This document shows positions 6,363-33,070 of a DNA stretch of 64,000 nt, in pieces (positions within the stretch are counted from its first letter, which is position 1; each line of letters opens with the position of its first letter). The stretch is from an uncultured archaeon (GTDB lineage Archaea > Asgardarchaeota > Thorarchaeia > Thorarchaeales > Thorarchaeaceae): NCBI GenBank assembly GCA_964473825.1, contig CAYYQL010000005.1, forward strand, positions 32,001 to 96,000. Direction: 5' to 3'. A program made the position numbers and the translations under genes. The notes below the pieces were generated by a model that was not told the origin of the DNA, did no database searches, and saw only the letters and a program-made list of their open reading frames with translations.

Positions 6363-6386
6363 TAACTCGCTCCGAAGAGTGCCAAT

Positions 6387-7343
6387 CTAGTCACCGACGA
6401 CTTCCGCAACCACATATGGTTTCATGGCGACGGTCTCATAGTATACTCTGGAGATGTATTCGGCAAGCACCCCCAGACTGAACATCTGTATTCCCAGAAT
6501 GATCATGATAAGGGCCAGTGTGAAGAGCGGTCTATCCTCCAGAGGAGAATTGAAGAGGATACGTTCAATCCCAAGCCAGAAACTAATGAGACTGCCGGGT
6601 ACAGCAAGAAGAGCTCCAAGTGTGCCGAAGAGGTGCAAGGGGCTGGCAGAATAACGATACCAGAAAGTGACAAACATGAGATCTAGGCCACCCTTCACTA
6701 GACGTTTGGCTCCGTACTTTGTTTCTCCACCGCCTCGCTTCCTGTGAGTGACCTTAACCTCTCCAACATCGGATCCTCTCCAATTCAGCAGGGCTGGGAT
6801 ATATCGATGCATCTCCCCCTGTAATTTCAAGTCTCTTGCAACGTCGCTCTTATACACTCTCAGAGAACAGCCTGAGTCATGGATTGTCTCGCCAAGAAGG
6901 CGGCGCCGTAACCAGTTCGACATCCTTGAGAAGGTGCGCTTTGTGAACTTGTCCTCCCTCTTGTGCCGCCAACCACAGATAACGTCATATCCCTTTTCCA
7001 GTTCCTCAACCATCCGTGGAATGTTTGCGGGGTCATCCTGCATGTCACCATCCATAGTGACCAGAAGTCTGCCTTTGGCATGATCGAATCCAGCTTGCAT
7101 CGCGGCACTCTGACCGAAGTTCTTCTTCAGCTTCACCACCTTGATATCAGGCAGTGACTTGAGAATCTCTACGGTAGAATCTGTGGAACCATCGTCAACA
7201 AAAAGAATCTCGTAGGAAACGTCCATGGACTCAAGTACAGATCCAATCTCTTCACTGAGCGCTTTGACGTTCTCCTCTTCGTCATAGACAGGAACAACTA
7301 CAGAGAGATCCAACCCCGTTTCGTTCTCCAATTGTTTCACCAC
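6387..7343 (-). CDS. GT2 polyprenol-phosphate glycosyltransferase (GtrB/ArnC/YkoT-like)
   Basis: SVVVPVYDE, VDDGSTD, NFGQSAA, MDGDMQD, DSGCSL; two C-terminal TMs followed by EYISRVYYE. Confidence 0.92.
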   Translation of the reverse strand: MVKQLENETGLDLSVVVPVYDEEENVKALSEEIGSVLESMDVSYEILFVDDGSTDSTVEILKSLPDIKVVKLKKNFGQSAAMQAGFDHAKGRLLVTMDGDMQDDPANIPRMVEELEKGYDVICGWRHKREDKFTKRTFSRMSNWLRRRLLGETIHDSGCSLRVYKSDVARDLKLQGEMHRYIPALLNWRGSDVGEVKVTHRKRGGGETKYGAKRLVKGGLDLMFVTFWYRYSASPLHLFGTLGALLAVPGSLISFWLGIERILFNSPLEDRPLFTLALIMIILGIQMFSLGVLAEYISRVYYETVAMKPYVVAEVVGD

Positions 7344-7461
7344 ATAATACAGGATAGTTGGCTTGAGGCAACGACGTTTCGGTCTTCTCTCTACTCATAA
7401 GTCTTGCTGGCAAGATACACGGAGAAGACACTACGCTATCAATCGCTAGATGAGAACCAGG

Positions 7462-7686
7462 TTACTCAGCAGAATCAAATAGCGACGCGTGATTCGAGAT
7501 GACACCACGCCGTGCTGAGAAACCGCATGTACTTGCATTACTCTCCAGCATGATATCCTCCAGTTGAGAGTCTTCTACTGTGGCATTCATTCCTATAGCA
7601 ACATACGGCCCGAGGACGGATTCAGTGGTCTCTGCGCCGGAACCAACATAGCCAGCTCCAACAATCGTGATTTTCATTGTCATCAT
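7462..7686 (-). pseudogene. Deletion scar: UDP-sugar dehydrogenase N-terminus fused to sugar-phosphate nucleotidyltransferase C-terminus
   Basis: MKITIVGAGYVG (compare MKILIIGAGYVG at 37690) is joined to ESVLGPYVAIGMNATVEDSQLEDIMLES (compare NSTVGPFVSIGNGARVHSSVLSNVIVES in 33467-34501). Confidence 0.7.
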
Positions 7687-7786
7687 AATCCAGTTCTTGG
7701 CCTTGATGGAGCCCTGTGCTATGCTGAGAGGTCGGCATCAACCATCAAAGTTCTTCCATGGCTATACCCAGTTCATCCCGATACTC

Positions 7787-10700: not shown

Positions 10701-13700
10701 ATGTCGAAGACCTGCAGGGTGTAGTTGTAGTAGCCCTTAGCCAGAGTGTCTAGAGAAAAGGTCAGTGATGAGCCATTCCAAGAAGCCCACTCTATCAGGA
10801 TGGAATCACGATACAGGGAGTAGTTCAGGGGGTGTTGGTCAGTGGGATTCCATGTCAGCGTATTCCCTGTACTCCCCTCGTCCATCGTGATATCTGCCGG
10901 TGAGTCTAGGAAGGGTGCATCATCCTCCATGACGACAAATACGAAGACACTGTCAGAGGCTGAGTTACCGTATACATCAAACACTGTCAGAGTATAGACG
11001 TAGGTTCCAATAGCCAGCCCATCAACATTCTGAGAAATAGAACCGCCAGTCCATTCGGCCGACGCAATAAGTGTCCCATTTCTCGTGACCTTATAGCTAT
11101 CAGGATGAAGGTCAGAGGGGGACCAGTGAATCTGATGTCCAGTAGTTCCTTCGTCGTAGGTGACGTCGCTCGGACTGTCTATCGTGGGGGCAACCGTATC
11201 GTAGACTCTGGGAAACGGGTCTGATGCGGACGCAGGGCCATCAATTGAGTATGCTCCGCTCCCTGAATAGTCATGCCAGTAGTTTCCGAGGGATGAACTG
11301 TCGTACCATACACTTGTAGTTGAGTCATCATAGGCATTTGCCAATGAGTTATAGCCAATCCGGTTGTAGTAGAAATGGCATGATACACCGGATTCGACAT
11401 ATAGGCCGTACTCGTCATTGTAGGTGAGGGTGTTGTTGTAGAATAGGCTCAAATCTGTACCACTCACAAAGATACCATATCGTGTGTTGTTGTGGCTATG
11501 AGAATACCGAATGATGCCATATTCGCAGCCCACCATCCGGATCCCGTTGACTGTGTGATAGACCTCAACGCCGTGAAGAGTAACGTTCAATGAATATGCG
11601 AGGAGTATCTCAGGTATCTCGGAAAAGGTCCCGTTCTCTAGACGAACGTACGAGCAGTTCACTGCAATGACCTGTGAGTAGGAGCTGATATCTAGAAATG
11701 CACCAGAGAGGTTTGCGAAGTAGGCGATTGGTACACCGTCAATCGTGTTGTTGTCAAAGTAATGGTGGAGATGACTCGCGTTTCCATCGAAGAAGACACC
11801 GCATCCATGCAGGATGTTGTCTGCAATACGGCATTGTGAAGAGGATGTGATATTCAGTCCTATGACCGTAGAATTCAAGGTGTTGAAGAAGAGGCCGGTG
11901 TTTGGGGAATCCTGAAGATGAAGGGAAATTTCCGAAGATGTAATATCGACAAAATGAATCATGCAACTGTTACAGTGATCCATGAAGATGCCAGAGACTG
12001 CATTCTGAATTGTCAACGACTCCAGAAATGACTCAGATGTGTTCACGAACCATATAGCTCTGTCACCACCGTCCACAATGCTTTCTGAAAGGGTGATGTT
12101 CAGAGAGTTCTCAACGTAAATCCCGGCCTCAGGAGCATGATTGTACGTGTTGCCTTTGATGATAGTGTGATTTGTGTGTGTGACATATAGCGAGCTCTCA
12201 AGTGAACCCTGGTACCCAACTGTACAGTTGATGGTGTTTCCCGTGATTGTGCTGCTCTCAATGTGCCAAAGTACGATACCTTCACTATTTTGATAGGCGA
12301 TGTTGTCCAGAATCTTGATGCCAGAGAGATACTCAACGAAGATACCATTCCAACAATGATGCACGGTGTTGTTTGACAGTGTAATCTCATCGCAGTATTG
12401 CACGAAAATTCCACCCCAGCCCTCGTAGAATGTGTTATCGTGAACGCTCAAATTGACACACCCGTAGACATGGAGTGTCCCGTACGATCCTCCAAGGCCA
12501 CCACCGAGGTTATGTCCCATCTCGTTCATGCTGATCCATACATCTTGACAGTTAGCAATATACGCTTGTTCGCCGTTGTAGAGCAAGGTATTCTGAACTA
12601 TGGTGATGTTTTGGCAGTTGCGAAGATAGACGCCGTCAACACAATAGGAGCTTGCTGAGTCAAGAATGTCAGAGTGGTTGGACCGTATCATGAAGATGCC
12701 CCATTCGCAATAGTCAGCTTGGACAGATGAAACTCGAACATCCGTTGAGTATGACACTCCCACTCCGATAGTCGAGTTGGGTACGCTGAGGGCTTCGACT
12801 GAAACATTCTGAGAATTGACAACCCAGACCTGCCCAGCAGGCTCAGTGATCACCATTCCGGAAACCCCATCAAGGTAAACAAGTGGCTCGCCATTCACCC
12901 AGTTTCCACTCACCTGATGCTGCCAGTTTTGCAAAAGAAGACCGCCAATCAGCCACGATTCCTTCAGATAGTTGATTCCAAGGCCTCCATCAGTGAACTG
13001 GTTGTTTTCCACGATAACTGCAGTCGAGTCGAGCAGCTCGACTCCCGCTGTCGAACTGTGAGAGATTGTGTTGTTACGGATAAGAGGTGAATCAGCACAC
13101 TCCTGAACCAGCACTCCGATGTCGTTATAGCTCATGGTGTTATACTCGATGACAGTGCCTGGTGAAGACAGCCAAAGCGTCTGCAGGCCGTACTCGGTAT
13201 TTTGCTCGATGGTGTTGTCGGTAACAACCACCGCAGAGTCGTTCCGAACAAGACCGCCAATCCGATTATTGAATATCAGGTTGTCGCGGACTATCGCGTC
13301 CTGGGTCACGGCAAACATGAATCCGTGACCGTTGTCGTGTAGAATATTGTCATGAACGCGGATGCCACTGCTGTACCATGTATTCACGCCATGATATCCA
13401 CAGCCGGCAAGATCACAATTGTATATAGTCATGTTTCTCACATTGTTCCCCCCGACGCCATAGACCCCATAGGTTGAGGCCTCCGTGGTAACATTAGCTG
13501 CAACTGAGTTGTTGGAGTATGAGAAGGCTACAGCATTCCAGCACTCCAAAGCATAGACATCCTTTGTCGTGCAGTTGTCACTGTCAGACCATAATACGGC
13601 CCTTTTGATTCTGTAGAAATCGCCTCCAGTGGTTGTGACATTCTTACACCAGAGAAGATTCGCCTGCCCATACATGTCGAGATTGATCGTTGTATTCGCA

Positions 13701-14371
13701 AGACCCTCGAAGTAGCCAATCGGTTTGCCCCCCACAGTGTTGTTGCTGAAGAAAGTGTTGTTCAGACCGCGGTTGATGTCCATACCTCCATAGGTGTTTG
13801 TGTTGTTTGCAAACAAGCCATGCTGGGGATTGTTGAAATAATGCCCATTCTGCGCAGTATTGTCCACGAATTCAAGATAGTGAGAGTGGTAAATGGCGCA
13901 GCCACTGACGAAGGTGTTGTTGACCACCGAAAGATAGTCGCAGGTCGTGGAATACATTGAACGCCAACCGTTCTCGAACTTATTATTTAGGATACGAACA
14001 TTGTCTGCCGAAATTAGTGATATGGCCACTTTCCCTTCACCGCCGAAGTAGCAGCCACGAATGTCGAGGTGCAGGGTTGTGTCAGAGATACTGATAGCGC
14101 TCTCTTCTGGGTAATCAGTGAAGTTGTATCCCTCGATGAGATAGGGCCATGATGCCGAGCCGTTTCCCGGTAGACCCAAAGCCGCCAGTTCTGCATCTCC
14201 AGTAGCAGATATCGCAGCATGAGGTGTATAGTCCGCAACCAAAGAAGATCCTAGGATTTTAGGAGCGCCAGACCAATCCGGGCCGTTGACTGGAGTAGCC
14301 AACATAATCACCAAAATAAAGAAACCTACGAAGAATACGACGTCTAAAGTCTGACCACTGCTTCTCATCAC
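7787..14371 (-). CDS. Giant cell-surface protein: signal peptide, NosD/right-handed beta-helix region (~1050 aa), 12 Ig-like repeats, C-terminal TM
   Basis: Hydrophobic N-terminus; YTPHAAI...GNGSASWPYLIEG cap; many PbH1-like N-x-I repeats ending in GNYWHDY; 12 ~90-aa repeats; TM plus basic tail; many N-x-S/T sequons. Confidence 0.9.
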   Translation of the reverse strand: MMRSSGQTLDVVFFVGFFILVIMLATPVNGPDWSGAPKILGSSLVADYTPHAAISATGDAELAALGLPGNGSASWPYLIEGYNFTDYPEESAISISDTTLHLDIRGCYFGGEGKVAISLISADNVRILNNKFENGWRSMYSTTCDYLSVVNNTFVSGCAIYHSHYLEFVDNTAQNGHYFNNPQHGLFANNTNTYGGMDINRGLNNTFFSNNTVGGKPIGYFEGLANTTINLDMYGQANLLWCKNVTTTGGDFYRIKRAVLWSDSDNCTTKDVYALECWNAVAFSYSNNSVAANVTTEASTYGVYGVGGNNVRNMTIYNCDLAGCGYHGVNTWYSSGIRVHDNILHDNGHGFMFAVTQDAIVRDNLIFNNRIGGLVRNDSAVVVTDNTIEQNTEYGLQTLWLSSPGTVIEYNTMSYNDIGVLVQECADSPLIRNNTISHSSTAGVELLDSTAVIVENNQFTDGGLGINYLKESWLIGGLLLQNWQHQVSGNWVNGEPLVYLDGVSGMVITEPAGQVWVVNSQNVSVEALSVPNSTIGVGVSYSTDVRVSSVQADYCEWGIFMIRSNHSDILDSASSYCVDGVYLRNCQNITIVQNTLLYNGEQAYIANCQDVWISMNEMGHNLGGGLGGSYGTLHVYGCVNLSVHDNTFYEGWGGIFVQYCDEITLSNNTVHHCWNGIFVEYLSGIKILDNIAYQNSEGIVLWHIESSTITGNTINCTVGYQGSLESSLYVTHTNHTIIKGNTYNHAPEAGIYVENSLNITLSESIVDGGDRAIWFVNTSESFLESLTIQNAVSGIFMDHCNSCMIHFVDITSSEISLHLQDSPNTGLFFNTLNSTVIGLNITSSSQCRIADNILHGCGVFFDGNASHLHHYFDNNTIDGVPIAYFANLSGAFLDISSYSQVIAVNCSYVRLENGTFSEIPEILLAYSLNVTLHGVEVYHTVNGIRMVGCEYGIIRYSHSHNNTRYGIFVSGTDLSLFYNNTLTYNDEYGLYVESGVSCHFYYNRIGYNSLANAYDDSTTSVWYDSSSLGNYWHDYSGSGAYSIDGPASASDPFPRVYDTVAPTIDSPSDVTYDEGTTGHQIHWSPSDLHPDSYKVTRNGTLIASAEWTGGSISQNVDGLAIGTYVYTLTVFDVYGNSASDSVFVFVVMEDDAPFLDSPADITMDEGSTGNTLTWNPTDQHPLNYSLYRDSILIEWASWNGSSLTFSLDTLAKGYYNYTLQVFDINGLWASDTVFVTVNDVTPPVIESPGDQFIFTGTTGNVLRWNVSDLYIASAVVYRDGVQQTGAGFYGTFVNISIDGLMVGDYNYTVLVWDTSSNEATDTVIVTVWDPDVPIIDSPPDVDMLEGTTGESITWNPETAHPSSYEVRRNGSVIESGSWDNSSITVSLDGLARGVYNYTLTVWDMSGNSNSDTVMVEVIETDPPVVDSPSDIQINEGQTGVNITWSVSDEHPGTYEVFRNGTIVDQGTWAEPSIVFDLSGIALGAYNFTLKVADTHGFWSSDSVIVEVFDMTPPSTGNPDNITYTEGSTGNWLVWPARDNHPHSHRIWRNGTLVAEGAWAGSDISIQIDGLSIASYNYTIQLWDTSDNSAIDTVYVFVVMETDPPVLDHPADVTRGEWDYGYSILWQCSDEHPHYYWVYVDSVIVDMGSWNGSDIDFEIDYLTLGTYNVTLVVADESDIRSQDSVWVYVIDNRAPILGSPDDIYYVVDESGNSIEWTLQEEYLDSYLIFRNGSQTTGGVFNGTVVIISVDGLSVGTWNLTILATDTSGNAATDLVWVFVMESGVPIVDSPADLEYLEGTTGHSVTWSPLTENPDFYEVLVNGTMYESGTWDNNPITVSVDGLVVGVHNVTLVVFDVSSSSTWDTVWVTVTYNPPPVLDSPPDISYSEELPLGSITWSAADDTPRNYTVYINASVFESALWTQSSIEVNVSGMSRAYYNVTLVVQDTGGMTAADTVWLRVVYEFNPPQVSHPEDIDYTFGDTGTQITWSTYDQHPARFAVYLNGSLRNSGSWSSNVISENVDGLIPGTHNVTLVLYDVDDNSAFDTVLVQVASIPPPTVTDQSDMEVDAGTTGNTITWNPSSDAPSHYEIYVNGTLVANNTWDGGAIEFNVDSLGEGYHEVNMTAYDELGSSVSDVVGVTVRPAQGMQLGGTDIVTLVSLGVVVVFGVLLVKAWRGRGKTKKEEDWSDMMEDFRKA
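7954..11200 (-). repeat. 12 tandem ~270-nt Ig-like domain repeats
   Basis: Consensus PPxxDSPxDxxYxEGxTGxxIxW...YxxxxNGT...W....I....DGLxxGxYNxTLxVxDxxGNxxxDTVxVxV counted 12 times in the translation. Confidence 0.9.
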
Positions 14372-17975: not shown

Positions 17976-18595
17976 TCATGAAGCCAGAATGGGGCTACCC
18001 GCCATGTAATCAGGAATCTCGATCCCCATGTATCTCAGAATTGTCGGACAGATATCCAGTATTCTCTGAGAGGCCTCTTTCGGTGTTGATTGGTCCGGAA
18101 AATGGGCAAGATAGATACCGTCCCAGTCATGAACCGCGTCGTCGGGGCCGATCTCATTCTCATAGTAGTACATCGATTCGTGGCCCATACCGCTCGATGC
18201 CCGCCATGCCAGACTGTCGAAGTATACCATGAGGTCTGGATAGTCACCCTGGCAGTCCTCGTAGATGTCCTCAGGTTTGTCAACCGTCACGTCCCAGTTC
18301 TGACCGTCGGGACCAGGTATGTTCAGAATCTTCTCAGCGAGCTGGTCACGGAAATGCTCATACTCCTCCGGTGGGACTATGCCGTGACGCTCGTATCCCT
18401 CCACATTGATGAAGATGCGGGAGTAGTAACCGCCCCACGCCCAGGCCTTCGTATCCCTCCAGTCGATCTCCAGATCGTCGAACTCGGTGGGACCAGAGGG
18501 GTGCTTCTTGAGGGTGAGAAGGCCCTCTTCTTCGAGCCACTGGTTAACGCAGAACGCGCCCCGTCTCGTCTTTGCACCATGGTTCGGAACCACCC
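17976..18595 (-). pseudogene. 3' half duplicate of the AlkP/nucleotide pyrophosphatase gene
   Basis: HGAK...CVNQWLEEEG...DDAVHDWDGIY matches 24509-25900; 18217-18545 is identical to 24750-25078; the 5' half is absent. Confidence 0.92.
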
Positions 18596-18597
18596 GA

Positions 18598-18963
18598 CAT
18601 GTATGTGGTGCATCGAGAACCTGGTTCCCATAAGAACCATGGAGCCCGATGATTGGGTGTTCATAACCTACATTAACTGGATACTGAGGGCCCGGGTGAA
18701 CTGCACAGGATACTGGCAGAGATGAGAATGGAATAGGAGGGAGAGAGTGTTGACATCGATGACACCGTCGATTCCACAACCAGAGAGGACAGCGCGGTGG
18801 TGACGGGGCGGAATCCCCTCACAGACTGGAAACAACAACTGTCAGAGGAGCAGATTGCACCGGTGATTGAGATTGTTGACGAGTTTGGGCTCTCCAGCCT
18901 GTATGGACGAGAAACCATGCCCCGGATTCAGCACTTTACGCCTACCAGTGAGATACCGTCCTG
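18598..18963 (+). pseudogene. Degenerate 3' duplicate of the sulfotransferase gene
   Basis: CMWCIENLVPIRTMEPDDWVF...TREDSAVVTGRNPLTDWKQQLSEEQI aligns with 32458-32824; contains a frameshift and a stop. Confidence 0.9.
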
Positions 18964-19309
18964 AGTGAAATCGAGGGGAGAGCGCACTATGGATATAGCC
19001 TGGCTTAAGGAGGAAGTGTCAATGACTCGGTATGGAGAGCTCTCGCTTTCTTGGACTGCAAGATCCAATTCATCGGCAATTGTCTAGTCGACAAACTTCA
19101 TCTTAGCAGCAACAAGACGGCCTTGGGAGAGCTCGAGGTCCTTATGGACAGAGGAAGTCCAGAGAAATCTCAATCACCATCTGAGTGGGGGCATGGCGCA
19201 TCGATTACATACACGTCTGTAGGCTCTATGTGCTAATAACCCATAATAGGGAGGCACAAGTATAGACATTATCTCTTTGAGAACATATCCGATAAGTGAG
19301 GGTGAAATA

Positions 19310-20914
19310 TTGGCAAAGCGTTTTGAAAGGGCACTAGTGATGAAGAGTGCCGTGATACGTGATGAGGAGTGCGTAGAAGGCGAAGAAGAGGCGCTGATTC
19401 TGTTTGCAGAAGCGCTCAGACGGTCTATGTCAAAATACGCAAGAACAGTGAAGCGATGCAAGAGATATGCAGCTGTGGCCTTCGTTGAGGCTGTTGTCGT
19501 AGCAGCTGCGCTACTGCTACTGACACAGGGTGATATTTCCATGCTGATGTATACTGCAATCTTGTCCGCCCTCTCTCTTGCTCTGGGTTTCTATTTGCTC
19601 TGGAAGAGTAGGAGGCTCAGGCCTGAGTACAAGATCAGGAGTATTGAACGGATGGAGTATCCGATTGCGTTGTATCGAGAGGAAGACGGACGTTTCATCG
19701 TCTTCGATGCAGGTGGAGCTGCGGCTCAGAAGGAATATTCTTTTCCTGCAATCAAAGACACGGATCGGCTCGGCAACTCGGTGGTTCAGATTCGGAATCA
19801 GATGAAGCGTTACTGGGACTTGCTCGACATGGGAGGATTCCAGCAGGCAGAGACTCTCAGGGCAATGCCGGACTTTGGTGAGGTCACGGCTTCAGGAAAG
19901 ATAGAACAGATTGTTGAGATTCCAATGGGCGGCCTCGTCGATTCCATGGATGAAACCAACATCGAGCGAACTCGAATGAGGGCACCCGTGATAGAACGTG
20001 ACGATCCAGTTATTGATGAGATAGAGTCACTGGCATGTTTTGCTGCGTTGGAAACCAATCTTCCCACAGAAGAACGTGACATGGGGATTCTAGTCGATCG
20101 AGGACTCTGCATGGAAATATCTCCTGAAGATTTGATGAAACAAGCACGAAGTTTCAGGAAATGGTCTAAGGAGGCCCTAGAGCAAGATATCATGACACTG
20201 GTGAAAGATGTAGTGGTCGAATTAGATGAGGAATTCTCTGAGCTCAGACATATCCTCATGTCCACACCAGCTCTGATTGAAGCCACCCTGCCATATTCAG
20301 TAAGCCTCCATGAGGATTTCATGTATTTCCACTTCTGCCCACAGTGTCGTCTGTCAGACTTGGAAGAGGCAGAGAGAGAGACCGATTTCAGAAGATGGGT
20401 AAACGAGAAGATACTCGGTAACGCCCTTGATGATACAGATCTTGTGCATCCACATACATATGGCGATCCAGATACAGTCGAAAGAATCCGAGAACGTATC
20501 GAGGCAACGATTAGGTCCAATCTTCCCTTAGCAGACCCGGTCTTCCCCGTTATCCTTGCAGACCTCAGAGAGTTGACGATGGACGAGCTTGGGAGCTATC
20601 ACTGCGAAGTATGCGGCCTCCAAGGAGAAGGCATCAAGGTGCCTAGGTCAGTGCATCCACTGGCATCTGCATACCTGCTCAATCTCAGAGAACAGGCTAA
20701 ACACATTCAGAAGAAATCCGACGTCATCATCAGAAACGTGCATGATGTGATTATGAACAAGGAATCGAAACTGGTTTCTCTTGGAGCGTATGAACAGAGC
20801 GTTCAACAGGCCGAACAGAGTAAATTGACAGTCAAAGGAGACCTCGATGCTGCAAACGAGGTCGAGAAGGTAGTGAGGGCATTCGAGAAGTCTGCCGAAA
20901 GAGGGAGGCGATAG
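19310..20914 (+). CDS. Uncharacterised membrane-anchored protein: 2 N-terminal TMs, split CxxC...CxxC Zn site, C-terminal coiled coil
   Basis: TTG start after a GAGGGTGA RBS (track start is 19277); TMs AAVAFVEAVVVAAALLLL and LMYTAILSALSLALGFYLLW; CPQC and CEVC motifs; heptad-rich tail. Confidence 0.8.
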   Translation: MAKRFERALVMKSAVIRDEECVEGEEEALILFAEALRRSMSKYARTVKRCKRYAAVAFVEAVVVAAALLLLTQGDISMLMYTAILSALSLALGFYLLWKSRRLRPEYKIRSIERMEYPIALYREEDGRFIVFDAGGAAAQKEYSFPAIKDTDRLGNSVVQIRNQMKRYWDLLDMGGFQQAETLRAMPDFGEVTASGKIEQIVEIPMGGLVDSMDETNIERTRMRAPVIERDDPVIDEIESLACFAALETNLPTEERDMGILVDRGLCMEISPEDLMKQARSFRKWSKEALEQDIMTLVKDVVVELDEEFSELRHILMSTPALIEATLPYSVSLHEDFMYFHFCPQCRLSDLEEAERETDFRRWVNEKILGNALDDTDLVHPHTYGDPDTVERIRERIEATIRSNLPLADPVFPVILADLRELTMDELGSYHCEVCGLQGEGIKVPRSVHPLASAYLLNLREQAKHIQKKSDVIIRNVHDVIMNKESKLVSLGAYEQSVQQAEQSKLTVKGDLDAANEVEKVVRAFEKSAERGRR

Positions 20915-20915
20915 C

Positions 20916-21938
20916 ATGAGTCAGTATGATGAGATTGCTAGGGTAACGCACTTGATTGATAGGCAGACCTCAATCCTCGCGGAAATCAGGGATGAACTAA
21001 GAAGGCAGACAGATGAGCTAGGAGAGGGATTTGGACACTTGGGGAGGGCCTTGGAGTGGGTTGAACAGGAGATACGCCTTCTCAAGAACGCCACCCTGAG
21101 CATCGAGAAAGCAAAGGCAGAAGCGATTATCGATACAAAGAGGGAACAAATGGAGAGTGCAGTGAGAATCTGGTCAAGAGCAAAAGAACGATTTGCTTCA
21201 CAGTACCGGAAAGTGATTGCCGACTACGTGAAGGGTCTTGAAGACAATGTCCACCGATTCACCCGATTGGTTTCTGACGAGCTGTCCCCCATGTTCAAGA
21301 TCAACGAGGGGGCTAGCGACTTTCAACAGATAATCGAAGAAATGCGTCCCAAAGCCATTGACAACCTCCGAACTGAAACGGCTGTCAACATGTCAGGGAT
21401 GAAGGGATCAGAACTGATGGATAGGTACAAAAGTGCCAGAGAGAGCCTCACTCGGTTCTATAATGAGCGCAAAGCGCTTGTCGACAGAATCGAAGCGGCA
21501 AAGTCTGTGATTGAATTCGACCTGAACCAGCAGATTGCGCCGGGGGAAACGGTTCTCTTCAGAATACCATTCTATGCAGTCACATTTGAGGACGCAAACG
21601 GTAATCTCGTCAGGGAACTCATTGGCCCGAGCAATGCCGTTTCCACGGAAGATGGCGATAATGAACTTATTCCAAAGCTACTGGAACCTCTAGCTCCGAG
21701 TCTCAAAGAAATGGTTGCTGAATCACCAGCCTTCGACATAGACCGAATGATTGGTAGTATACGGCCGACTGGGGGAATTCCTGAGAGTGCTCAATCTGCA
21801 GTTAGCAATGTTGCTCGCTATTTGACATATGCAGGCATGAGTAAGGATCTAGCAGAGGAGATCCAGCAATTCTATGGGCCGGACTGCAGAGATTGGCAAC
21901 CTGAAGCAGAGCACACGCAGGGAGATGATGAAGTGTGA
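20916..21938 (+). CDS. Uncharacterised protein with long N-terminal coiled coil and small C-terminal alpha/beta domain
   Basis: GGAGG RBS; starts 1 nt after the upstream stop; ~190 aa of heptad-like helix, then FRIPFYAVTF...ELIGPS. Confidence 0.8.
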   Translation: MSQYDEIARVTHLIDRQTSILAEIRDELRRQTDELGEGFGHLGRALEWVEQEIRLLKNATLSIEKAKAEAIIDTKREQMESAVRIWSRAKERFASQYRKVIADYVKGLEDNVHRFTRLVSDELSPMFKINEGASDFQQIIEEMRPKAIDNLRTETAVNMSGMKGSELMDRYKSARESLTRFYNERKALVDRIEAAKSVIEFDLNQQIAPGETVLFRIPFYAVTFEDANGNLVRELIGPSNAVSTEDGDNELIPKLLEPLAPSLKEMVAESPAFDIDRMIGSIRPTGGIPESAQSAVSNVARYLTYAGMSKDLAEEIQQFYGPDCRDWQPEAEHTQGDDEV

Positions 21939-23152
21939 GGAATTCGTTCGTGTCAACAGAACCCGGCGCTCATATCGATGATGTAGAGAACAAGATCCTG
22001 CTAGACGGCAAGTACTACGGAATAGGGGCAGTTTCTGGTTACAACGAAGTCCTTGTCGATGATGGAGCCCGACAGGGCAATTCAATACATGCCTGGCGTA
22101 GGATTGTTATCAACTCCGGGGCGGCCGTTCATGGCAGCGTCTACAGTGATGAGGATATCATAATCAGAAGTGGAAAGGGCAAACAATCAGAATGCTCTGC
22201 TGTCCTGATTGGAGATGTTCTTGCAAGGAATAGACTGGAGGTGGAGCCTCCCACCAAGCAAGATGAGTCGGGTCCGGTAGTTATCTTGGGGAATGTCTAC
22301 GCCAAAGAAATCCATGTGGGCGGTGAATTGTTCGTGCAGGGGAATGTCTACGCCACAAATAGCATGACTGTGAAATCGCCCACCTTCATCGCGGGAAGGC
22401 TGAAAATCGGAAGAGCTCAGTTTGAGAATGCTCACGGCAAGAGAATCTCAATAAAGGGAAAGGGCGAGCTGTCGTCTACCACGGCCTTCGGAGTGATATG
22501 TTACGGGGATCTGGAACTCCATCGAGGCATTTCAGTCCTGGAACCAATGGTCATTGCTAGAAACGGCGATGTGTTCATGAAAGATGAAGAAAGAGTTCGC
22601 GTAGTATCTGAGATGTGTCTTAGCTGTCAGGATTGCGAGGCTGACCCATTCATGTGTCGCGAGTATCTACGGGGGCGATGCAGGAAGTTCGAGTATCTCA
22701 TGGCAGAGGATGCGTCGAAATACAAGAACACAACCACACTCTCATGGTACTGGCGAGCTGGCCCGGGAATGCTAGGCCACCATTACAGCATCCATAAGCT
22801 GTACGAGAGAGCTTTGAAGCGATTCGATAGCTCTGCATTCAGACAAGATGGTATCGCATCAATCAGTTTTGAGAATGCATATGAAGACACTATCGCGGCA
22901 CTTGTGGAAATCGATACATCAAGAGATGCCAAGGCAAGGTGGTTCGCCTCGAAAGTTACCGCCGCAGGCAATCTCCCCGGAGAGAGCTACTACAGGCTGC
23001 TACAGAAGATGCTACCCGGCCCGCCAACAGATGAGGAGGTTCAACTGCGGAAAGTGAAACCACAAGAGATTGAGGAAACCAAGGCAATCGAAACATTCCT
23101 TGAGAATCTGGATGACGGAAACCTGCTGCCAGATCCTGAAGAAGAGCAGTAA
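21935..23152 (+). CDS. Bactofilin-like (polymer-forming) beta-helix protein with a Cys cluster
   Basis: GTGA overlap with the upstream stop; repeats VHGSVYS, LIGDVLA, ILGNVYA, VQGNVYA, IAGRLKI; motif CLSCQDC-x6-C-x7-C. Confidence 0.6.
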   Translation: MRNSFVSTEPGAHIDDVENKILLDGKYYGIGAVSGYNEVLVDDGARQGNSIHAWRRIVINSGAAVHGSVYSDEDIIIRSGKGKQSECSAVLIGDVLARNRLEVEPPTKQDESGPVVILGNVYAKEIHVGGELFVQGNVYATNSMTVKSPTFIAGRLKIGRAQFENAHGKRISIKGKGELSSTTAFGVICYGDLELHRGISVLEPMVIARNGDVFMKDEERVRVVSEMCLSCQDCEADPFMCREYLRGRCRKFEYLMAEDASKYKNTTTLSWYWRAGPGMLGHHYSIHKLYERALKRFDSSAFRQDGIASISFENAYEDTIAALVEIDTSRDAKARWFASKVTAAGNLPGESYYRLLQKMLPGPPTDEEVQLRKVKPQEIEETKAIETFLENLDDGNLLPDPEEEQ

Positions 23153-23206
23153 CTCCAAGAGGAATCTGATACATGAACAGATGATGGCCAATGAAGTATT
23201 CAGGAC

Positions 23207-24265
23207 GTGTCTAGCATGAACTGGGACATCCAGGAAGAGATAGCTCTGACCGGACACAAGAGTGCTGTTCATGATGTCTGCTTTCTGAATGGCTCCGAGA
23301 AACTGATATCCGCTTCTGAGATGGGAGTGGTACGCCTGTGGCGCATCACAGACTCGAAGACCCTCTTGTCGCGACGCCTTCACAGCGACACTATCTATGA
23401 CCTGAGCGTGAGCCCGGGCGGTGGTGAAATGGCCACTATCTCAGCAGATAGGACGCTCTCTGTGTGGGACTTGTCCGATGAGTCATCCCACCCCGTATCT
23501 CAAGTACTGGATTCGACCGCATACTGCCTAGAACACTTGAGAGATGATACGCTAGCAATGGGCATGGACAATGGGTGTATTGTACTCCGGGACATTCCAG
23601 GATGCCACGTGAATCAGGTTTCACATGCCCATGAGGACGCAGTCAATGATATGCAATGCAGCCCCAGTGGTGAGTTCTTGGTTTCCGCATCTAGAAATGG
23701 AGAGGTCAGTCTCTGGGCAACCCCGGAACTGCAACTCTACCGGAGATTTCACGGGGCAGAAACTCCGGTGAAATGTGTCGACTTCAGTGCAGATGGCGTC
23801 ACCGTGGCCGCCGGAGATGAAGAGGGCAGAGTTCTATTGTGGGATGCACATATGTCAAGTCCAATCGCATGCCTTGAAACCTGCAATGAGTCAATTGCAG
23901 ACATTAAGTTCCATCCTAGTGGACGTCTGCTGCTCGTTCTTGGTTCATCAGGATTCCTCTATACCAGGGACATAACCAGTACTGATAGTGCTGAAATAGA
24001 TGTATGCGGCGAGGGAGCGAACTGCCTATCTATCAGTTCCGATGGACGTCTGGTCGCAGTGGGGTGCGGCGATTCAAGCATCAGACTTCTGGCACTGTGG
24101 CCTGAGAAGGTCCAAGCAGAGGGTCACCTGAAGAGGCATGTATCCTGGACATGCCGGTACTGCTTTGCCCCCCTTACGGTGAGAGATGTGGAAAGACTGA
24201 AAGCAAATCAACCCGTTTCTTGCTGCTACTGCGGTCGGACTCTCACCTTGGAGCTATACGAGTAG
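23207..24265 (+). CDS. WD40-repeat beta-propeller with C-terminal Zn ribbon
   Basis: About 7 GH/AH...WD-type repeats (GHKSAVHDVCF, DRTLSVWD, AHEDAVNDM, RVLLWD); C-terminal CRYC...CCYC. Confidence 0.92.
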   Translation: MSSMNWDIQEEIALTGHKSAVHDVCFLNGSEKLISASEMGVVRLWRITDSKTLLSRRLHSDTIYDLSVSPGGGEMATISADRTLSVWDLSDESSHPVSQVLDSTAYCLEHLRDDTLAMGMDNGCIVLRDIPGCHVNQVSHAHEDAVNDMQCSPSGEFLVSASRNGEVSLWATPELQLYRRFHGAETPVKCVDFSADGVTVAAGDEEGRVLLWDAHMSSPIACLETCNESIADIKFHPSGRLLLVLGSSGFLYTRDITSTDSAEIDVCGEGANCLSISSDGRLVAVGCGDSSIRLLALWPEKVQAEGHLKRHVSWTCRYCFAPLTVRDVERLKANQPVSCCYCGRTLTLELYE

Positions 24266-24508
24266 ACTTGGCTGCAGACGCCTTGAGAACGCGTCCTCGT
24301 AACCATTTTGGAACAGCCGAGTACCCTTCATTAGACACACAAAGGGAACGATGTCTGCAGTCTTTGATTATATCTCAGGCCGGAAACTATGATCCTTCGC
24401 ACGAGTCCTAACCCGTATCAGGCGGGAATCTCCCATGCGTTAGATTGCTGTCAATCATCACGAAACACTCAGACAGGTGTGCATCTCGTCAGAGGCACGC
24501 GGTCCGTT

Positions 24509-25900
24509 TTACGTTGGCGCGATTGCTTCACCCTTTGCGTAACCCGGAATATTCGAGCCCATGAACCTCAGAATGGTGGGGAAGATGTCGAGTATGCTCC
24601 TGCGTTCAACCTTGGACTCTGTCTGACCCGGAAAATGGGCTAGATAGATACCGTCCCAGTCATGAACCGCATCGTCGGGGCCGATCTCATTCTCATAGTA
24701 GTACATCAATTCGTGGCCCATACTGCTCGACGCGCGCCACGCCAGACTATCGAAGTATACCATGAGGTCTGGATAGTCACCCTGGCAGTCCTCGTAGATG
24801 TCCTCAGGTTTGTCAACCGTCACGTCCCAGTTCTGACCGTCGGGACCAGGTATGTTCAGAATCTTCTCAGCGAGCTGGTCACGGAAATGCTCATACTCCT
24901 CCGGTGGGACTATGCCGTGACGCTCGTATCCCTCCACATTGATGAAGATGCGGGAGTAGTAACCGCCCCACGCCCAGGCCTTCGTATCCCTCCAGTCGAT
25001 CTCCAGATCGTCGAACTCGGTGGGACCAGAGGGGTGCTTCTTGAGGGTGAGAAGGCCCTCTTCTTCGAGCCACTGGTTGACGCAGATAGCTCCCTTCCTC
25101 GCCTTTGCTCCATGGTCGGAAACCAGCATGATGAGACAGTCCTCAGGAGCGAGTTCAATCATCTCACCCAGCTGTCGGTCCATCAGCCGGTAATACTCTC
25201 TGAAGCGTTCCTCGTAGGCGTTGCCCGCCTCGTATAGATGATGGGTCTTGTCGTAGTACTTCCAGAAGCCGTGATGAAGACGGTCAGTACCCACCTCCAT
25301 GAGCCCAAAAAAGTCCCATTCCTTGTTCTTGAGGATGTGCTTGGCAACTTCATGCCGCTTGCTCGTCATTCTGAAGAGATCTTCGAAGAGCCGCTTCTTG
25401 TCCTCGGTCCTGTAGAAGACATCAAGCATGTAATCTCCGACAATCTCTGCAATCTCCCCCGCGAAGGAAGCCGGATAGGTGTATTCTTGTGATGTATCAG
25501 GCGTGATGAACCCGGACACGAGAATGCCGTTCACACTCTGCGGGGGATAGGTGGGTGGAAAGCCAATCACAGCGACCTTGTAGCCTTGATCACCAAGGAG
25601 ATCCCATAGCCTAGGTAGCCGTATTTTCGTAGAGTCGGGAATCCATACTCGCCTGTAATCGCCTGCCTGCCGATGTCTGAAACCGTACATGCCAAGCTGA
25701 CCGGGGTCTGCACCTGTCACCATAGACATCCAAGCAGGTATGGTGATAGGCGGCTTCGTGCTCCTGAGGGGGCCATAGGTGCTCTTCTGCATCAACTCCT
25801 GCAGGTTCGGGAGCTCATCACGTATATTCTCGAACACAAGACCCGGAGGAACACCGTCCCAGCCTATCAACATGACCTTTTTCTTCTGAGATTCGGTCAC
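24509..25900 (-). CDS. Alkaline-phosphatase-superfamily (type I phosphodiesterase/nucleotide pyrophosphatase) protein linked to sat/cysC
   Basis: IGWDG, STKPPITIPAW (Thr nucleophile), TDRLHH, VSDHG, DDAVH. Confidence 0.88.
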   Translation of the reverse strand: MTESQKKKVMLIGWDGVPPGLVFENIRDELPNLQELMQKSTYGPLRSTKPPITIPAWMSMVTGADPGQLGMYGFRHRQAGDYRRVWIPDSTKIRLPRLWDLLGDQGYKVAVIGFPPTYPPQSVNGILVSGFITPDTSQEYTYPASFAGEIAEIVGDYMLDVFYRTEDKKRLFEDLFRMTSKRHEVAKHILKNKEWDFFGLMEVGTDRLHHGFWKYYDKTHHLYEAGNAYEERFREYYRLMDRQLGEMIELAPEDCLIMLVSDHGAKARKGAICVNQWLEEEGLLTLKKHPSGPTEFDDLEIDWRDTKAWAWGGYYSRIFINVEGYERHGIVPPEEYEHFRDQLAEKILNIPGPDGQNWDVTVDKPEDIYEDCQGDYPDLMVYFDSLAWRASSSMGHELMYYYENEIGPDDAVHDWDGIYLAHFPGQTESKVERRSILDIFPTILRFMGSNIPGYAKGEAIAPT

Positions 25901-29204: not shown

Positions 29205-31616
29205 TCAGTCGAAGAATTCCTCGTAGTCTTCGTATTTGCGCATCTTACGCCCTCGATGAACCATATAGCCCGCACCTATCAACGCAATTCCAATGATGGC
29301 TACGGAGAGAACCATCGGGTCTACGCTACCGAGGATGTCTGAACCTGCAACTCCGTACGAGTCTTCGGAGGTCACGGCCCAGTCCTCGTAGATGTCGCAT
29401 ATGAATGCCTTATACCGCACCACAGTACCCGGGGCTTGAGGAGGAATCTCTGCCACCCAGTAGTCAGCGGTTCGGTTTGCTGTGGAGTTTGTCCAAGAAT
29501 CACCATCATCGGGGGAATATGCAATCACAACTTTCCAGACAAGATTGGGGTGGTTCATACCAACACTCACTACGACCGAGTCTGTTGGCTCAGGGGACTC
29601 GGGAGAGGTGGTCATGGAAACGACCGACAACTCGATGTGATCTGGCCTGGATAATACGTCGAAGAACGACAACAGCACCAGAGGATAGTGGTCCACATTG
29701 CCACTGTTGATCTCATAGGGTGTGTCTCCAATCCCGTCACCGTCCGAATCCACGCCCTCATACTGCGCCCAGTAGTTCCCATGAGTTGAGTTGTCCCATT
29801 GAATATCGGAGCTCAGGAATACCCTCGCTCCAGAATCATCTCCTGTCAAGAATGCATTGAGAGAAATCAGACAATCAGATGATGACTCAAGGGAGATGTC
29901 GTAGGTCTGAGAGCGGTTGACTGCATTTCCACGTACAACAATCTCTCTGCAGCTCTCAAGGTCGATACCGCGCACTGAGACATCATCGATTATGTTCTCC
30001 AGTAATTCTATGTACTCTGTGCTCATGACAGTAATGCCATGGTTTGCTGTTGTTGAGATGTTATTTTTCACGATTTGTGACCCGTCGGACATGTCCAAGG
30101 CGATACCGCTTGCAGCAACATCGGAGATGCGATTTCCATGCACTGTCGTATTGGGGGCTTTGAGAACAAGTATTCCATTGTCGCCGATATGTTGCGCCTG
30201 GTTGTCCATGAATATACAGTCGGAGCTGTTGAAGACACTCAGCCCCTGCCACCCGGCCACATTGAAGAGGTTCTCTCTCACGAGAGCGTGGTCTGAGAAA
30301 TCGTGGATGAGAATACCATCTTCGACCACACCGTTCAACTCGTTATACTCGAAGATGCAGTCCTTCGACTCTTGGGCACGTAACCCAGTCCAGAAAGTGT
30401 CCTCCAAGATGTTACCACTGACGTGGGCACCGTGTGAGTTCTTCTGAATAACGATACCTCCGGTTCTGATCAGAGTGTTGTCTGCTACATACACCCCAGT
30501 AGTTGCCCATACCTCTACCCCATACTCCCTTGTGTCTTCCACGAAGTTTCCCACGATACTTGTATTGCTTGTATGCGTTGTTCGGATTCCGGGGAATGTG
30601 CTGTTGTAAACTCTGTTGTTCGTGATTGACACGTTAGAGCTCCAATTTTCCACGCCGCACGAGGAGGAGTTGGTGATGGTATTGCCGGTGATTGTGGACG
30701 ACTCAGAGTCCTCTATTCTGATGCCGAGTTCATCTGAGAAACTTATGTGATTGCTTTCGACAGTGTTGTTCGGGGCACCTACAAGGCGAATCCCACACCA
30801 TGTGGTCTCCGAGATTGTGTTATTCCGAATTATTGTGTGCGGGTTCTCCGAACAAATTCCGTTCCATCCCGAGTTTCGTATCGTGTTTCCTTCAACTAAC
30901 TGGTTCGTTGCGCCTATGCAGAGCCGGATTCCATCCCACCCCTGACCATCCAGTTCATTATCACGGATCGTGGTGTAGTTTGAGAACTCAACCCGAATTG
31001 CTCCGAGCGCTGTGTCTTCCACGTGATTCTCAACGATTGTCGAGCTCAACGAGTTGTGTTCGTAGATGCCATAGTGACCCGAGTTCGTGATACTGTTGAG
31101 CTGGATGAGTGTGTTTGTGGATGCCGTGTCGCATATCCCATCGGAGTTATCGTGGATGCTGTTGTCGATCACAGCACAGCCGACACAGGAGGCGAGGAAG
31201 ACTCCTGTCTGGTGCATCTCAACGATGCTGCTCCTGACTGTTCCATGGGTGACATTGCTGAAGGAGATGCCATGATTGCTCGATGATGTGGGCGAGCTGA
31301 TCAGGCAATCCCTAATCTCAAAATGAACATCCGTATCACGGATATAGATACATGTCGCGGTATCTGTGATGTTAAGCCCCTCTATGATGTAGGGCTCGCT
31401 TTCAGTCCCACTCCCAGGCCACCCCTGACTCGCGAAATCATCGTTTCCATTGATGGTGATAGGACCATGGGGCGTGTACGTTTCGGCAACATCTGTCTGA
31501 CCTACGCGGTCACTGGAGATATGTGTTCGAGAATCACCAACAGTAGCCACATACTGAGCAGGAAGTACTACAGAGAACAACATGATTACTAGTAGAATAT
31601 GTTTCCAACCACTCAC
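29205..31616 (-). CDS. NosD/right-handed beta-helix surface protein with C-terminal Ig-like domain and TM anchor
   Basis: Signal-like segment; YTPHGPITINGNDDFASQGWPGSGT cap; PbH1 repeats; GNYW...DSDGDGIGDTPY; C-terminal TM. Start estimated (track start is 31820). Confidence 0.85.
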   Translation of the reverse strand: MSGWKHILLVIMLFSVVLPAQYVATVGDSRTHISSDRVGQTDVAETYTPHGPITINGNDDFASQGWPGSGTESEPYIIEGLNITDTATCIYIRDTDVHFEIRDCLISSPTSSSNHGISFSNVTHGTVRSSIVEMHQTGVFLASCVGCAVIDNSIHDNSDGICDTASTNTLIQLNSITNSGHYGIYEHNSLSSTIVENHVEDTALGAIRVEFSNYTTIRDNELDGQGWDGIRLCIGATNQLVEGNTIRNSGWNGICSENPHTIIRNNTISETTWCGIRLVGAPNNTVESNHISFSDELGIRIEDSESSTITGNTITNSSSCGVENWSSNVSITNNRVYNSTFPGIRTTHTSNTSIVGNFVEDTREYGVEVWATTGVYVADNTLIRTGGIVIQKNSHGAHVSGNILEDTFWTGLRAQESKDCIFEYNELNGVVEDGILIHDFSDHALVRENLFNVAGWQGLSVFNSSDCIFMDNQAQHIGDNGILVLKAPNTTVHGNRISDVAASGIALDMSDGSQIVKNNISTTANHGITVMSTEYIELLENIIDDVSVRGIDLESCREIVVRGNAVNRSQTYDISLESSSDCLISLNAFLTGDDSGARVFLSSDIQWDNSTHGNYWAQYEGVDSDGDGIGDTPYEINSGNVDHYPLVLLSFFDVLSRPDHIELSVVSMTTSPESPEPTDSVVVSVGMNHPNLVWKVVIAYSPDDGDSWTNSTANRTADYWVAEIPPQAPGTVVRYKAFICDIYEDWAVTSEDSYGVAGSDILGSVDPMVLSVAIIGIALIGAGYMVHRGRKMRKYEDYEEFFD

Positions 31617-31894
31617 TCTAACCACACAGCAGGTAAGTTGGCAATAGGACAAATATATTTTTCTCCATCCTATCAATGAAATTCTCCATTGTTTAGAGAA
31701 CAAGTAGGGCCTTAGAATAAGGCAAACTGGCCTAGTCTGTGACGAAACTTCATCTTTTGGTGAGAACCTGTTCGCACGCTGAACGAATCCGTTTGTCTTG
31801 GCCCCAATCGGAGGGAACATCGCTCTGCTGTTGATGACTACTAGGTTCGATTAAAGAGGAGAAAGTATATCACGGCCTACCATGAGCCCATCGT

Positions 31895-32824
31895 ATGAAC
31901 CTCCCGTTCAGCTGGCGCCACATATTCAGTTGGATGTACGTTGATAGAGCCAAGAGCTCAGACGTAATCGTCGTGGCGGGAACAGGAAGGAGCGGAACGA
32001 CCTGGCTTGCACAGGTTATGAGCAGGCTCCTCAACCATCGCCTTATGTTTGAACCTCTTGATCCCCGGCGGGTCGGTCTCGTGAAGAACATGAAGTACAA
32101 GCGATATCTCCGACCAGATGCATCCACACCATTCCACAGGAGGGTCTTCAGGAAGATACTCGAAGGGAGAGTGCATGAACACTGGGTGAACGCCGCGAAC
32201 ACCGTCTTCTGGGCAAGGGGCCGGATTGTGAAGACCATCAGAGGGAACCTGCTCCTCAAGTGGTTCAGAGAGAGGTTTCGAAGAGTGCCCATCGTGTTCA
32301 TCACACGGCATCCCTGCGCGGTCGTGAACTCTCGACTTAGAGTCGGCTGGAAGGGTGGTCTGGATGGGTTCATGTCGCAACAGGCGCTGGTGGAGGACCA
32401 TCTGAAGGAGTATGTGGACATCATATCGAATGCGTCCAGTGACCTTGAGAAGACGGCCTGTCTGTGGTGCATCGAGAACCTGGTCCCCCTGAGAACCATG
32501 GAGCCCGATGATTGGGTCTTTACAACCTATGAGTGGCTCTATTCTGAGGGGTGGCGGGAACTGCATAGGATTCTGAGAGAGGCAGGGGTGGAGGAGGAGG
32601 GAGAGGGCTTCGACATGCATGACACGATTGCGCCGACGACCAGAGAGGACAGTGCGGTGCTGACGGGGCGGAATCCCCTCACCGAGTGGAAACACCAACT
32701 GTCGGAAGACGAGATTGCAAGGGTGCTCGAGATCGTTGATGCGTTCGGTCTGTCCAGTCTGTATGGGCCGGATGTAATGCCGCGGATTGGTCGTTCGACG
32801 ACCACCTCAGAGATACTGGATTGA
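31895..32824 (+). CDS. PAPS-dependent sulfotransferase
   Basis: 5'-PSB GTGRSGTTW, FEP, 3'-PB RHPCAVVNS, YE, WKHQLS. Confidence 0.9.
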   Translation: MNLPFSWRHIFSWMYVDRAKSSDVIVVAGTGRSGTTWLAQVMSRLLNHRLMFEPLDPRRVGLVKNMKYKRYLRPDASTPFHRRVFRKILEGRVHEHWVNAANTVFWARGRIVKTIRGNLLLKWFRERFRRVPIVFITRHPCAVVNSRLRVGWKGGLDGFMSQQALVEDHLKEYVDIISNASSDLEKTACLWCIENLVPLRTMEPDDWVFTTYEWLYSEGWRELHRILREAGVEEEGEGFDMHDTIAPTTREDSAVLTGRNPLTEWKHQLSEDEIARVLEIVDAFGLSSLYGPDVMPRIGRSTTTSEILD

Positions 32825-32825
32825 G

Positions 32826-33070
32826 GGAGATGCCCGAGCTGTTATAGACCTCGAAGAAGCGATTCTTTGATGCATGATCCGCAAAGGTCAGAAACCATGG
32901 GACGCGATTCCACTCTTCGTCGTAAGAAACCGTGTCACCTGCGAGGTCCCTACACACGCCACCAGCCTCCTCCACGATGACCTGAGGGATACCAAAGTCG
33001 TGCGGACTGGTCGTTTGCTACAGGAAGACCTGAGCGTCCTCCCTCGCGATGACGACCATCCCGTGATGTG
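32826..33070 (-). pseudogene. 3' remnant of a CysQ/inositol-monophosphatase-family gene
   Basis: HDFGIPQVIVEEAGGVCRDLAGDTVSYDEEWNRVPWF aligns with 41422-41672. Confidence 0.85.

Follow-up and report, generated by a model that had tools for sequence, protein, structure and literature searches.

A candidate three-gene, membrane-anchored module with an exchangeable fourth gene in Asgard and TACK archaea

A 64,000-nucleotide (nt) stretch of a contig from an uncultured thorarchaeon (CAYYQL010000005.1, positions 32,001 to 96,000; here called the window) carries four consecutive open reading frames (ORFs), ORF1 to ORF4, which together form a compact cassette. The core of this module is three genes, ORF1 to ORF3, and the WD40 protein encoded by ORF4 is a lineage-specific add-on, because the occupant of the fourth position varies among lineages. 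We tentatively read the module as an accessory, archaea-specific, and nonenzymatic assembly that is anchored in the membrane, coupled to a sensor, and fitted with an exchangeable signaling subunit. In kind it is a membrane-tethered beta-helix scaffold, closest to the bactofilins and halofilins, with two orphan partner families. A sequence-only reading of the window had called the module undescribed, and no described system matched it. Literature on bactofilins, Asgard archaea, STAND and HD-CE proteins, and defense systems also yielded no description of it.

All four genes are on the + strand (19277/19310-20914, 20916-21938, 21935-23152, and 23207-24265 in the ORF reading of the window). A single nucleotide separates ORF1 from ORF2 (TAG C ATG), the GTG start codon of ORF3 lies on the ORF2 stop codon as a GTGA overlap, and 54 nt separate ORF3 from ORF4. 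This layout had been described correctly from the sequence. So had the Asgard-like nature of the organism, because the nearest named homologue belongs to Candidatus Thorarchaeota. All four proteins are 54 to 72% identical to those of two other genera, and in distant archaea ORF1 to ORF3 are kept at about 16 to 30% identity with their order unchanged throughout. Therefore, the four ORFs are real genes. ORF1 to ORF3 had no NCBIfam, PADLOC, or PHROGs match and no Pfam match at threshold. In PADLOC-DB 2.0 they were without a match at E ≤ 1, and ORF4 had a generic repeat match only. None of the three core proteins contains an enzyme motif, as the sequence-only reading had said, and they look structural: a transmembrane anchor, a coiled coil, and a beta-solenoid.

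Homologues of ORF1, ORF2, and ORF3 are tightly consecutive and in the same order at all of the roughly 15 loci that we read (Thor-, Njord-, and Heimdallarchaeia, Bathyarchaeota, and Infirmifilum lucidum). Homology among the loci was confirmed by hhalign profile comparison; the Infirmifilum ORF2 match was weak. Named carriers are Njordarchaeia, Heimdallarchaeota (including the complete genome of Candidatus Heimdallarchaeum endolithica), Bathyarchaeota, and the cultured Infirmifilum lucidum, where the genes are IG193_00380 and the next three. A synteny comparison, which the sequence-only reading had named as a check, gave a split answer: ORF1 to ORF3 co-occur at these loci, but ORF4 orthologues were found only in three Thorarchaeota genomes. 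Relatives are few. An ORF1 profile matched 29 clusters, the window's own protein included, among 1.84 billion representative proteins, and ORF3 had only eight relatives among 5.8 billion clusters. A contig pattern scan with ORF3 alone found no relative, and neither did a scan of viral contigs with the ORF3 alignment.

Could a mobile DNA segment simply have carried unrelated hypothetical genes along together? Flanking direct repeats and a patchy distribution, both described below, would suit that explanation. However, the order and tight coupling of ORF1 to ORF3 persist from 70% down to about 16 to 20% identity and across archaeal phyla, and the interface predicted between ORF1 and ORF2 coincides with motifs conserved in both proteins. 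Also, the cassette has no integrase, transposase, or viral gene and matched no viral contig. We regard chance companionship as barely credible.

The fourth gene behaves differently. In the window, ORF4 (23207-24265, +) encodes a 352-amino-acid (aa) protein, or probably 349 aa from the ATG chosen by the gene caller (23216). It matched the WD40 family PF00400 at 105.5 bits (cut-off, 27) in five stretches and aligned to positions 49 to 338 of the 340 in the Gbeta profile, which fits seven blades. Its C-terminal CxxC...CCxC (C316, C319, C339/340, and C342; 24152-24232, +) resembles a zinc ribbon and occurs only in the three Thorarchaeota-type orthologues. The description of ORF4 as a seven-bladed WD40 protein with a zinc ribbon therefore stands, but its place as a fixed member of the module does not. 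At the fourth position, the three Thorarchaeota genomes encode a 350-aa WD40-zinc protein, and two contigs encode a WD40 protein of about 690 aa with a long tail. Four contigs (L007, L008, L009, and L054) encode an nSTAND3 NTPase of about 750 aa with a Walker A motif and a long helical C-terminal part (30.4 and 32.7 bits for L007 and L054, against a cut-off of 27.2). TACK-type loci have a Ser/Thr kinase of about 680 aa, Heimdallarchaeum has a PAS-GAF-HisKA protein, and one Heimdall locus has no fourth gene. At some loci there is no separate fourth gene and ORF3 is longer by about 450 to 550 residues with zinc ribbons. This extension was ruled out as a fused STAND NTPase or WD40 protein, because it has no Walker A motif and no profile match. 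A Heimdallarchaeum WD40 gene 4 kb downstream of the module was rejected as an ORF4 orthologue, since the two share only generic repeat similarity. The fourth-gene proteins of relatives drew generic kinase and weak P-loop matches in PADLOC.

Other additions to the core were also seen. Across the family, zinc ribbons recur as add-ons, in the ORF4 tail, the long ORF3 forms, an ORF3 insert at L007, and the Infirmifilum ORF3. At one metagenomic locus (L010), the gene for a 647-aa double-zinc-ribbon (DZR) protein (6061-8004) runs 4 nt into the start of ORF1. Two Heimdall loci have a divergently oriented gene directly upstream of ORF1 for a Pfam-less protein of about 297 aa (L012 6914-7804, -; L015 7685-8584, -). 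The two proteins are 28% identical to each other and may be a further lineage-specific partner.

Every fourth gene is of a signal transduction type, and the core is structural and anchored in the membrane. These features would also suit a membrane-proximal signaling platform, in which ORF1 to ORF3 serve as a static scaffold for gathering a lineage-specific signaling protein at the membrane and have neither a defense nor a cytoskeletal role. Such a platform seems quite improbable to us. ORF1 cannot sense outside the cell because it has almost no extracellular loop, some loci are without a fourth gene, and no specific pathway is indicated. In the sensor-coupled assembly that we prefer, the fourth protein would supply an input or adaptor function, by way of the WD40-zinc ribbon protein here and of the nSTAND3, kinase, or PAS-GAF-HisKA proteins elsewhere.

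ORF1 (19310-20914, +) encodes a 534-aa membrane-anchored zinc/coiled-coil protein of an orphan family. It has a TTG start codon with GGTGA upstream; the gene caller starts it at an ATG (19340), giving 524 aa. A Kyte-Doolittle scan placed a transmembrane hairpin at residues 51 to 98 (19460-19603, +), made of two hydrophobic helices and a very short loop, and in the structural model the helices that span this region comprise residues 25 to 71 and 76 to 102. The N and C termini would be on one side of the membrane, presumably the cytoplasmic one. Conservation predicts a four-Cys zinc site from two CxxC pairs (C343/C346 and C432/C435; 20336-20614, +). Across 17 sequences, C343, C346, and C432 never vary, and C435 is invariant among the five closest. 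The most conserved stretch is the motif VIIRNVH (residues 472 to 478; 20723-20743, +), which lies at the start of the long C-terminal helix and at the center of the predicted interface with ORF2. The model (pLDDT 80, pTM 0.40) has an 85-residue terminal helix at residues 448 to 533. These are the features that the sequence-only reading had assigned to ORF1, namely, two transmembrane segments, a zinc site, and a C-terminal coiled coil. An ORF1 profile gave only chance-level rows against PDB sequences, the model had no Foldseek match in the PDB at E ≤ 0.001, and a feature search of the Atlas with residues 110 to 534 gave no usable lead.

ORF2 (20916-21938, +) encodes the predicted partner of ORF1, a soluble and acidic protein from a second orphan family. 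Its N-terminal half is helical. It had been described as a soluble coiled coil of about 190 aa, but the protein is 340 aa long. An ORF2 profile gave only chance-level rows against PDB sequences, and a feature search of the Atlas gave no usable lead.

Complex modeling of ORF1 and ORF2, a check that had been suggested with the original description, supports extensive binding between the two predicted proteins. The model of ORF1 residues 110 to 534 with ORF2 scored 0.69, against 0.00 for the best of three controls. Among 80 solved complexes, 58 scored at least this high, as did 2 of 110 mismatched pairs; these counts are only rough because the alignments were author built. The runs agreed in at least 77% of contacts with a partner pLDDT of at least 67, and the predicted interface has more than 440 confident contacts. 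The pairs with the lowest expected error join ORF1 residues 469 to 484, which include VIIRNVH, to ORF2 residues 100 to 118 (21213-21269, +; conserved D103, N111, F115, and L118). These are the most conserved stretches of each protein. In the model, a long helical bundle forms around them, accompanied by shared alpha/beta elements. Recall of a solved complex is an unlikely explanation for the high score, because neither protein has a sequence relative in the PDB. Thus, the ORF1 hairpin would sit in the membrane with its large cytoplasmic part intertwined with ORF2. ORF3 would join this pair and may oligomerize, as its strict co-occurrence and translational coupling with the other two suggest.

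ORF3 (21935-23152, +; GTG start) encodes a 405-aa protein with a beta-helix, a zinc cluster, and a helical domain. In the model, residues 9 to 224 (21959-22606, +) form a right-handed triangular beta-helix, as in bactofilins. The helix carries a weak bactofilin signature: ORF3 matched Pfam Bactofilin (PF04519) at residues 116 to 165 with 26.0 bits (E = 1.1e-5), which is below the gathering cut-off of 27.9, and with 19.8 bits in a whole-genome search. Six of 11 ORF3 homologues matched Bactofilin at E < 0.01 (best, 4.8e-6), and NCBI labels two homologues "polymer-forming cytoskeletal protein." However, a bactofilin domain is compact, with about 110 residues between short unstructured tails, whereas the ORF3 helix has about 215 and is followed by a zinc cluster, beta-hairpins, and six helices that extend to residue 390. 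The cluster (C228, C231, C241, and C249; 22616-22681, +) is invariant in 11 sequences, so that four of the five clustered cysteines are kept and C234 is not, and a nearly invariant SWYWRA motif comes after it. Foldseek found no PDB match to the ORF3 model at E ≤ 0.001, and a shape search of the ESM-Atlas returned generic solenoids only, with TM-scores below 0.5. The top shape match was a "putative FapA family" cluster (TM-score 0.48 by query), and the Pfam match to FapA/DUF342 (PF03961) had an E value of 0.068. Both FapA matches are sub-threshold and reflect generic solenoid turns only.

Halofilins are archaeal relatives of bactofilins that shape cells, and in HalA of Haloferax two head-to-head bactofilin subdomains are linked by an alpha-helical hairpin (PMC11459167). 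No helix was assigned by DSSP N-terminal of residue 226 in the ORF3 model, so a hairpin of the HalA type is absent. By its sequence and predicted fold, we class ORF3 as bactofilin-like and not as a member of Bactofilin, because it falls below the Pfam threshold, is not a compact domain, and is without the HalA hairpin. Therefore, the earlier description of ORF3 as a beta-helix with bactofilin-type repeats held for the modeled helix but not for a canonical bactofilin. The genome encodes a second, unrelated protein of 428 aa, whose C-terminal part passes the Pfam Bactofilin cut-off with 32.6 bits (C9:32901-33176; L051 700-1986). It is not an ORF3 paralogue (hhalign probability, 42%).

The resemblance to bactofilins such as Caulobacter BacA and Thermus TtBac comprises the right-handed beta-helix, the weak repeat signature, the lack of a nucleotide-binding motif, and a membrane protein gene alongside. 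The module differs from them in that ORF3 scores below the threshold and has a helix of about twice the length. Bactofilins have disordered tails, whereas ORF3 has the invariant four-Cys cluster and a folded helical domain with SWYWRA, and its gene is always accompanied by those of two orphan partners. With HalA and HalB the module shares an archaeal protein of the bactofilin superfamily type that is linked to the membrane. HalB is reportedly a bactofilin fused to a transmembrane segment. ORF3, unlike the halofilins, is one uninterrupted beta-helix with no transmembrane segment, and the anchor is a separate protein. Also, halofilins are widespread in their clades, whereas the module is rare and patchy.

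These comparisons bear on whether the module is a membrane-tethered cytoskeleton of the bactofilin type. ORF3 would then polymerize end to end without nucleotide, ORF1 and ORF2 would tether the polymer, and the WD40 protein would recruit clients for shaping the cell, forming protrusions, or placing envelope or glycan machinery. The weak but recurrent Bactofilin signature, the two NCBI names, and the confident beta-helix model all fit such a system. So do the nonenzymatic, structural nature of the entire core, the predicted membrane anchor and ORF1-ORF2 complex, the glycan-related genes near the cassette in several lineages, and the role of halofilins in shaping cells (PMC11459167). However, ORF3 is under the Pfam cut-off, its helix is about twice as long as a bactofilin and has a folded zinc/helical domain at its C-terminal end, and another protein of the same genome does pass the cut-off. 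The supposed client adaptor is exchanged for NTPases and kinases elsewhere. Moreover, presence in about 2% of Asgard genomes, with differences between close relatives, would be unusual for a system that determines shape. On balance, we consider this cytoskeleton somewhat unlikely. The proposal of a membrane-tethered filament or scaffold thus fared unevenly: the structural core and the ORF1-ORF2 model speak for it, but a fixed WD40 subunit and a canonical bactofilin do not survive.

A strong match to the module was found in 8 of 400 Asgard genomes (about 2%), which belong to five families, and 3 of 41 close relatives have it. In the congener G002, whose genome is 92% complete, the sequences homologous to the left and right flanks sit on a single contig, separated by about 1 kb and without a cassette between them, and the genome yielded neither ORF1 nor ORF3. 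In G003, which belongs to a different genus, the corresponding region is syntenic and carries the cassette behind the same amidinotransferase gene; a syntenic cassette is also present in G013. The set is therefore inherited or lost together, in keeping with the idea that it was acquired as a unit. Because of this rarity and the presence/absence differences among close relatives, a core cell shape cytoskeleton is disfavored, and a sensor/effector alternative is raised.

Repeats flank the cassette. In the window it is bracketed by a 300-nt direct repeat whose copies are 97% identical. The left copy (18095-18394) lies inside a truncated Phosphodiest/AlkP-family ORF (17976-18779, -) and the right copy (24628-24927) inside an intact gene of that family (24509-25900, -), so the flanking scar that had been suspected is real. 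The G003 cassette (locus L004, C1:411000-426550) is bracketed by two repeat pairs, 3592-3887 versus 11115-11407 and 1665-2056 versus 11637-12027, which are 87 to 93% and 73 to 91% identical. These repeats consist of a TauE 3' end and an amidinotransferase, host genes different from those in the window, and the arrangement is compatible with homologous recombination that integrated or exchanged the cassette using partial gene copies.

Independent contigs from the two probable source runs, which sampled a microbial mat, span 18475-24485 with zero mismatches. Contigs of both runs contain an apparent low-depth joint (17421->24442) that leaves out 7020 bases, the entire cassette among them; one side of this joint is only 39 letters long. 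The joint had depths of 11.4x and 12.6x, whereas the cassette had 42.5x and 54.9x, and in one run (X1) the sum of the two depths is close to that of the flank. The joint is no more than a hint that the mat may also harbor a variant without the cassette.

Given its rarity, patchy distribution, flanking repeats, and location in flexible regions, we propose that the module has a role in conflict or envelope stress. The module would act through a sensor-triggered change at the membrane and not in ordinary cell shape, and this is the weakest step of the proposed mechanism. Presence/absence differences and the swapping of WD40, nSTAND3, and kinase proteins are habits of accessory conflict and stress systems. 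Therefore, we rank the cytoskeleton second and slightly favor a role in conflict or stress over one as a housekeeping cytoskeleton. The presence of genes for restriction-modification, toxin-antitoxin, or HD-CE proteins near several loci agrees with this. Heimdallarchaeum has restriction-modification, TnpB, and MazE genes as neighbors, and another Heimdall contig has Mrr and HepT/MNT nearby. HD-CE proteins (Pfam, 47 and 88 bits) are encoded at two distant loci, one nSTAND3-type locus (L007 9141-11342, -) and one kinase-type locus (L055 158-1405). No HD-CE gene was seen among the scanned neighbors in the window.

The likeness to STAND proteins of the Avs kind extends to architecture. nSTAND3 (PF20720) is the NTPase class of Avs5 (bioRxiv 10.1101/2025.07.08.663546). 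The fourth gene of L007, L008, L009, and L054 has the build of an Avs sensor, and a sensor-like part is swapped on a constant core. However, Avs proteins carry an effector, such as Sir2 or a nuclease, on the same chain, whereas the nSTAND3 relatives have no recognized effector domain and have three structural neighbors. The window's own copy also differs, with no P-loop family match in ORF4, hence no STAND NTPase in this operon, and no PADLOC match. Zorya offers another comparison. Its ZorAB proteins are anchored in the membrane with a long cytoplasmic coiled-coil tail and act in defense without an enzyme in the anchor; they form a MotAB-like ion-driven motor with several transmembrane helices. 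ORF1, in contrast, is a simple hairpin, and no sequence or fold relation to ZorAB turned up, although no test was aimed at Zorya.

Several findings weigh against the sensor-coupled assembly and its conflict or stress role. No effector-type domain is present in the module, and the core proteins drew none of the PADLOC, PHROG, or NCBIfam matches sought above. The PADLOC kinase and WD40 matches are generic domain matches, and proteins of the WD40, kinase, and STAND NTPase types have regulatory roles in ordinary cell structures as well. Each structure discussed here was predicted from a shallow alignment (5 to 17 sequences). The settings of several loci also point elsewhere: the neighbors in the window and in G003 are glycan and sulfation genes, and loci with a long ORF3 have metabolic neighbors (FeoB, carbonic anhydrase, GH38, and RNase III) and no defense genes. 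With no effector domain, no PADLOC match, and several loci outside a defense context, the defense idea is without positive evidence. The sensor/effector alternative of the sequence-only reading is thus raised by rarity and patchiness but finds neither a PADLOC match nor a recognizable effector. A more specific proposal is rather unlikely, namely, that the module represents a novel type of conflict or immunity system in archaea. Exchangeable cytoplasmic sensors (the WD40-zinc ribbon protein, the nSTAND3 NTPase, or the Ser/Thr kinase) would then trigger a bactofilin-like polymer, held at the membrane by the hairpin complex of ORF1 and ORF2, to remodel or breach the membrane, and a structural effector would take the place of an enzymatic one.

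Other features of the surroundings were recorded. Diverged direct repeats (18595-18971 versus 32454-32831; 73 to 88%) connect the scar on the left of the cassette with the distal end of the sulfation locus and agree with a collapsed duplicate of that locus. Two large Beta_helix/NosD-repeat proteins flank the region, one of 2194 aa (7787-14371, -) and one of 871 aa (29205-31820, -). The larger also has PKD and Ig-like domains, which make it a probable surface protein within a variable envelope island. PmbA/TldD gene pairs lie 2 to 3 kb upstream of the module in one Njordarchaeia contig (L008 2259-5068) and one Heimdallarchaeota contig (L012 3449-6397), which may be shared synteny or chance. A link to TauE, which is adjacent here, in G003, and in Heimdallarchaeum, was rejected because the family is too common and only two of the cases are independent.

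Because the module is present only in about 2% of Asgard genomes, it is no general feature of these lineages or of eukaryogenesis. What it offers is two orphan families, ORF1 and ORF2, that have no Pfam, NCBIfam, or PDB relative and always stand beside a divergent bactofilin-like protein. Together, the three proteins give a concrete membrane assembly to test in Asgard and TACK archaea, groups whose cell biology attracts broad interest, and since Infirmifilum lucidum is cultured, experiments are possible. The swapping of WD40 proteins, STAND NTPases, and kinases on one structural core is a clear case of modular sensor exchange. If the conflict reading is true, the module would be categorically new. 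A structural, nonenzymatic immune effector or a regulated membrane-shaping device, if either is what the module encodes, would be a new principle in archaeal defense or membrane biology.

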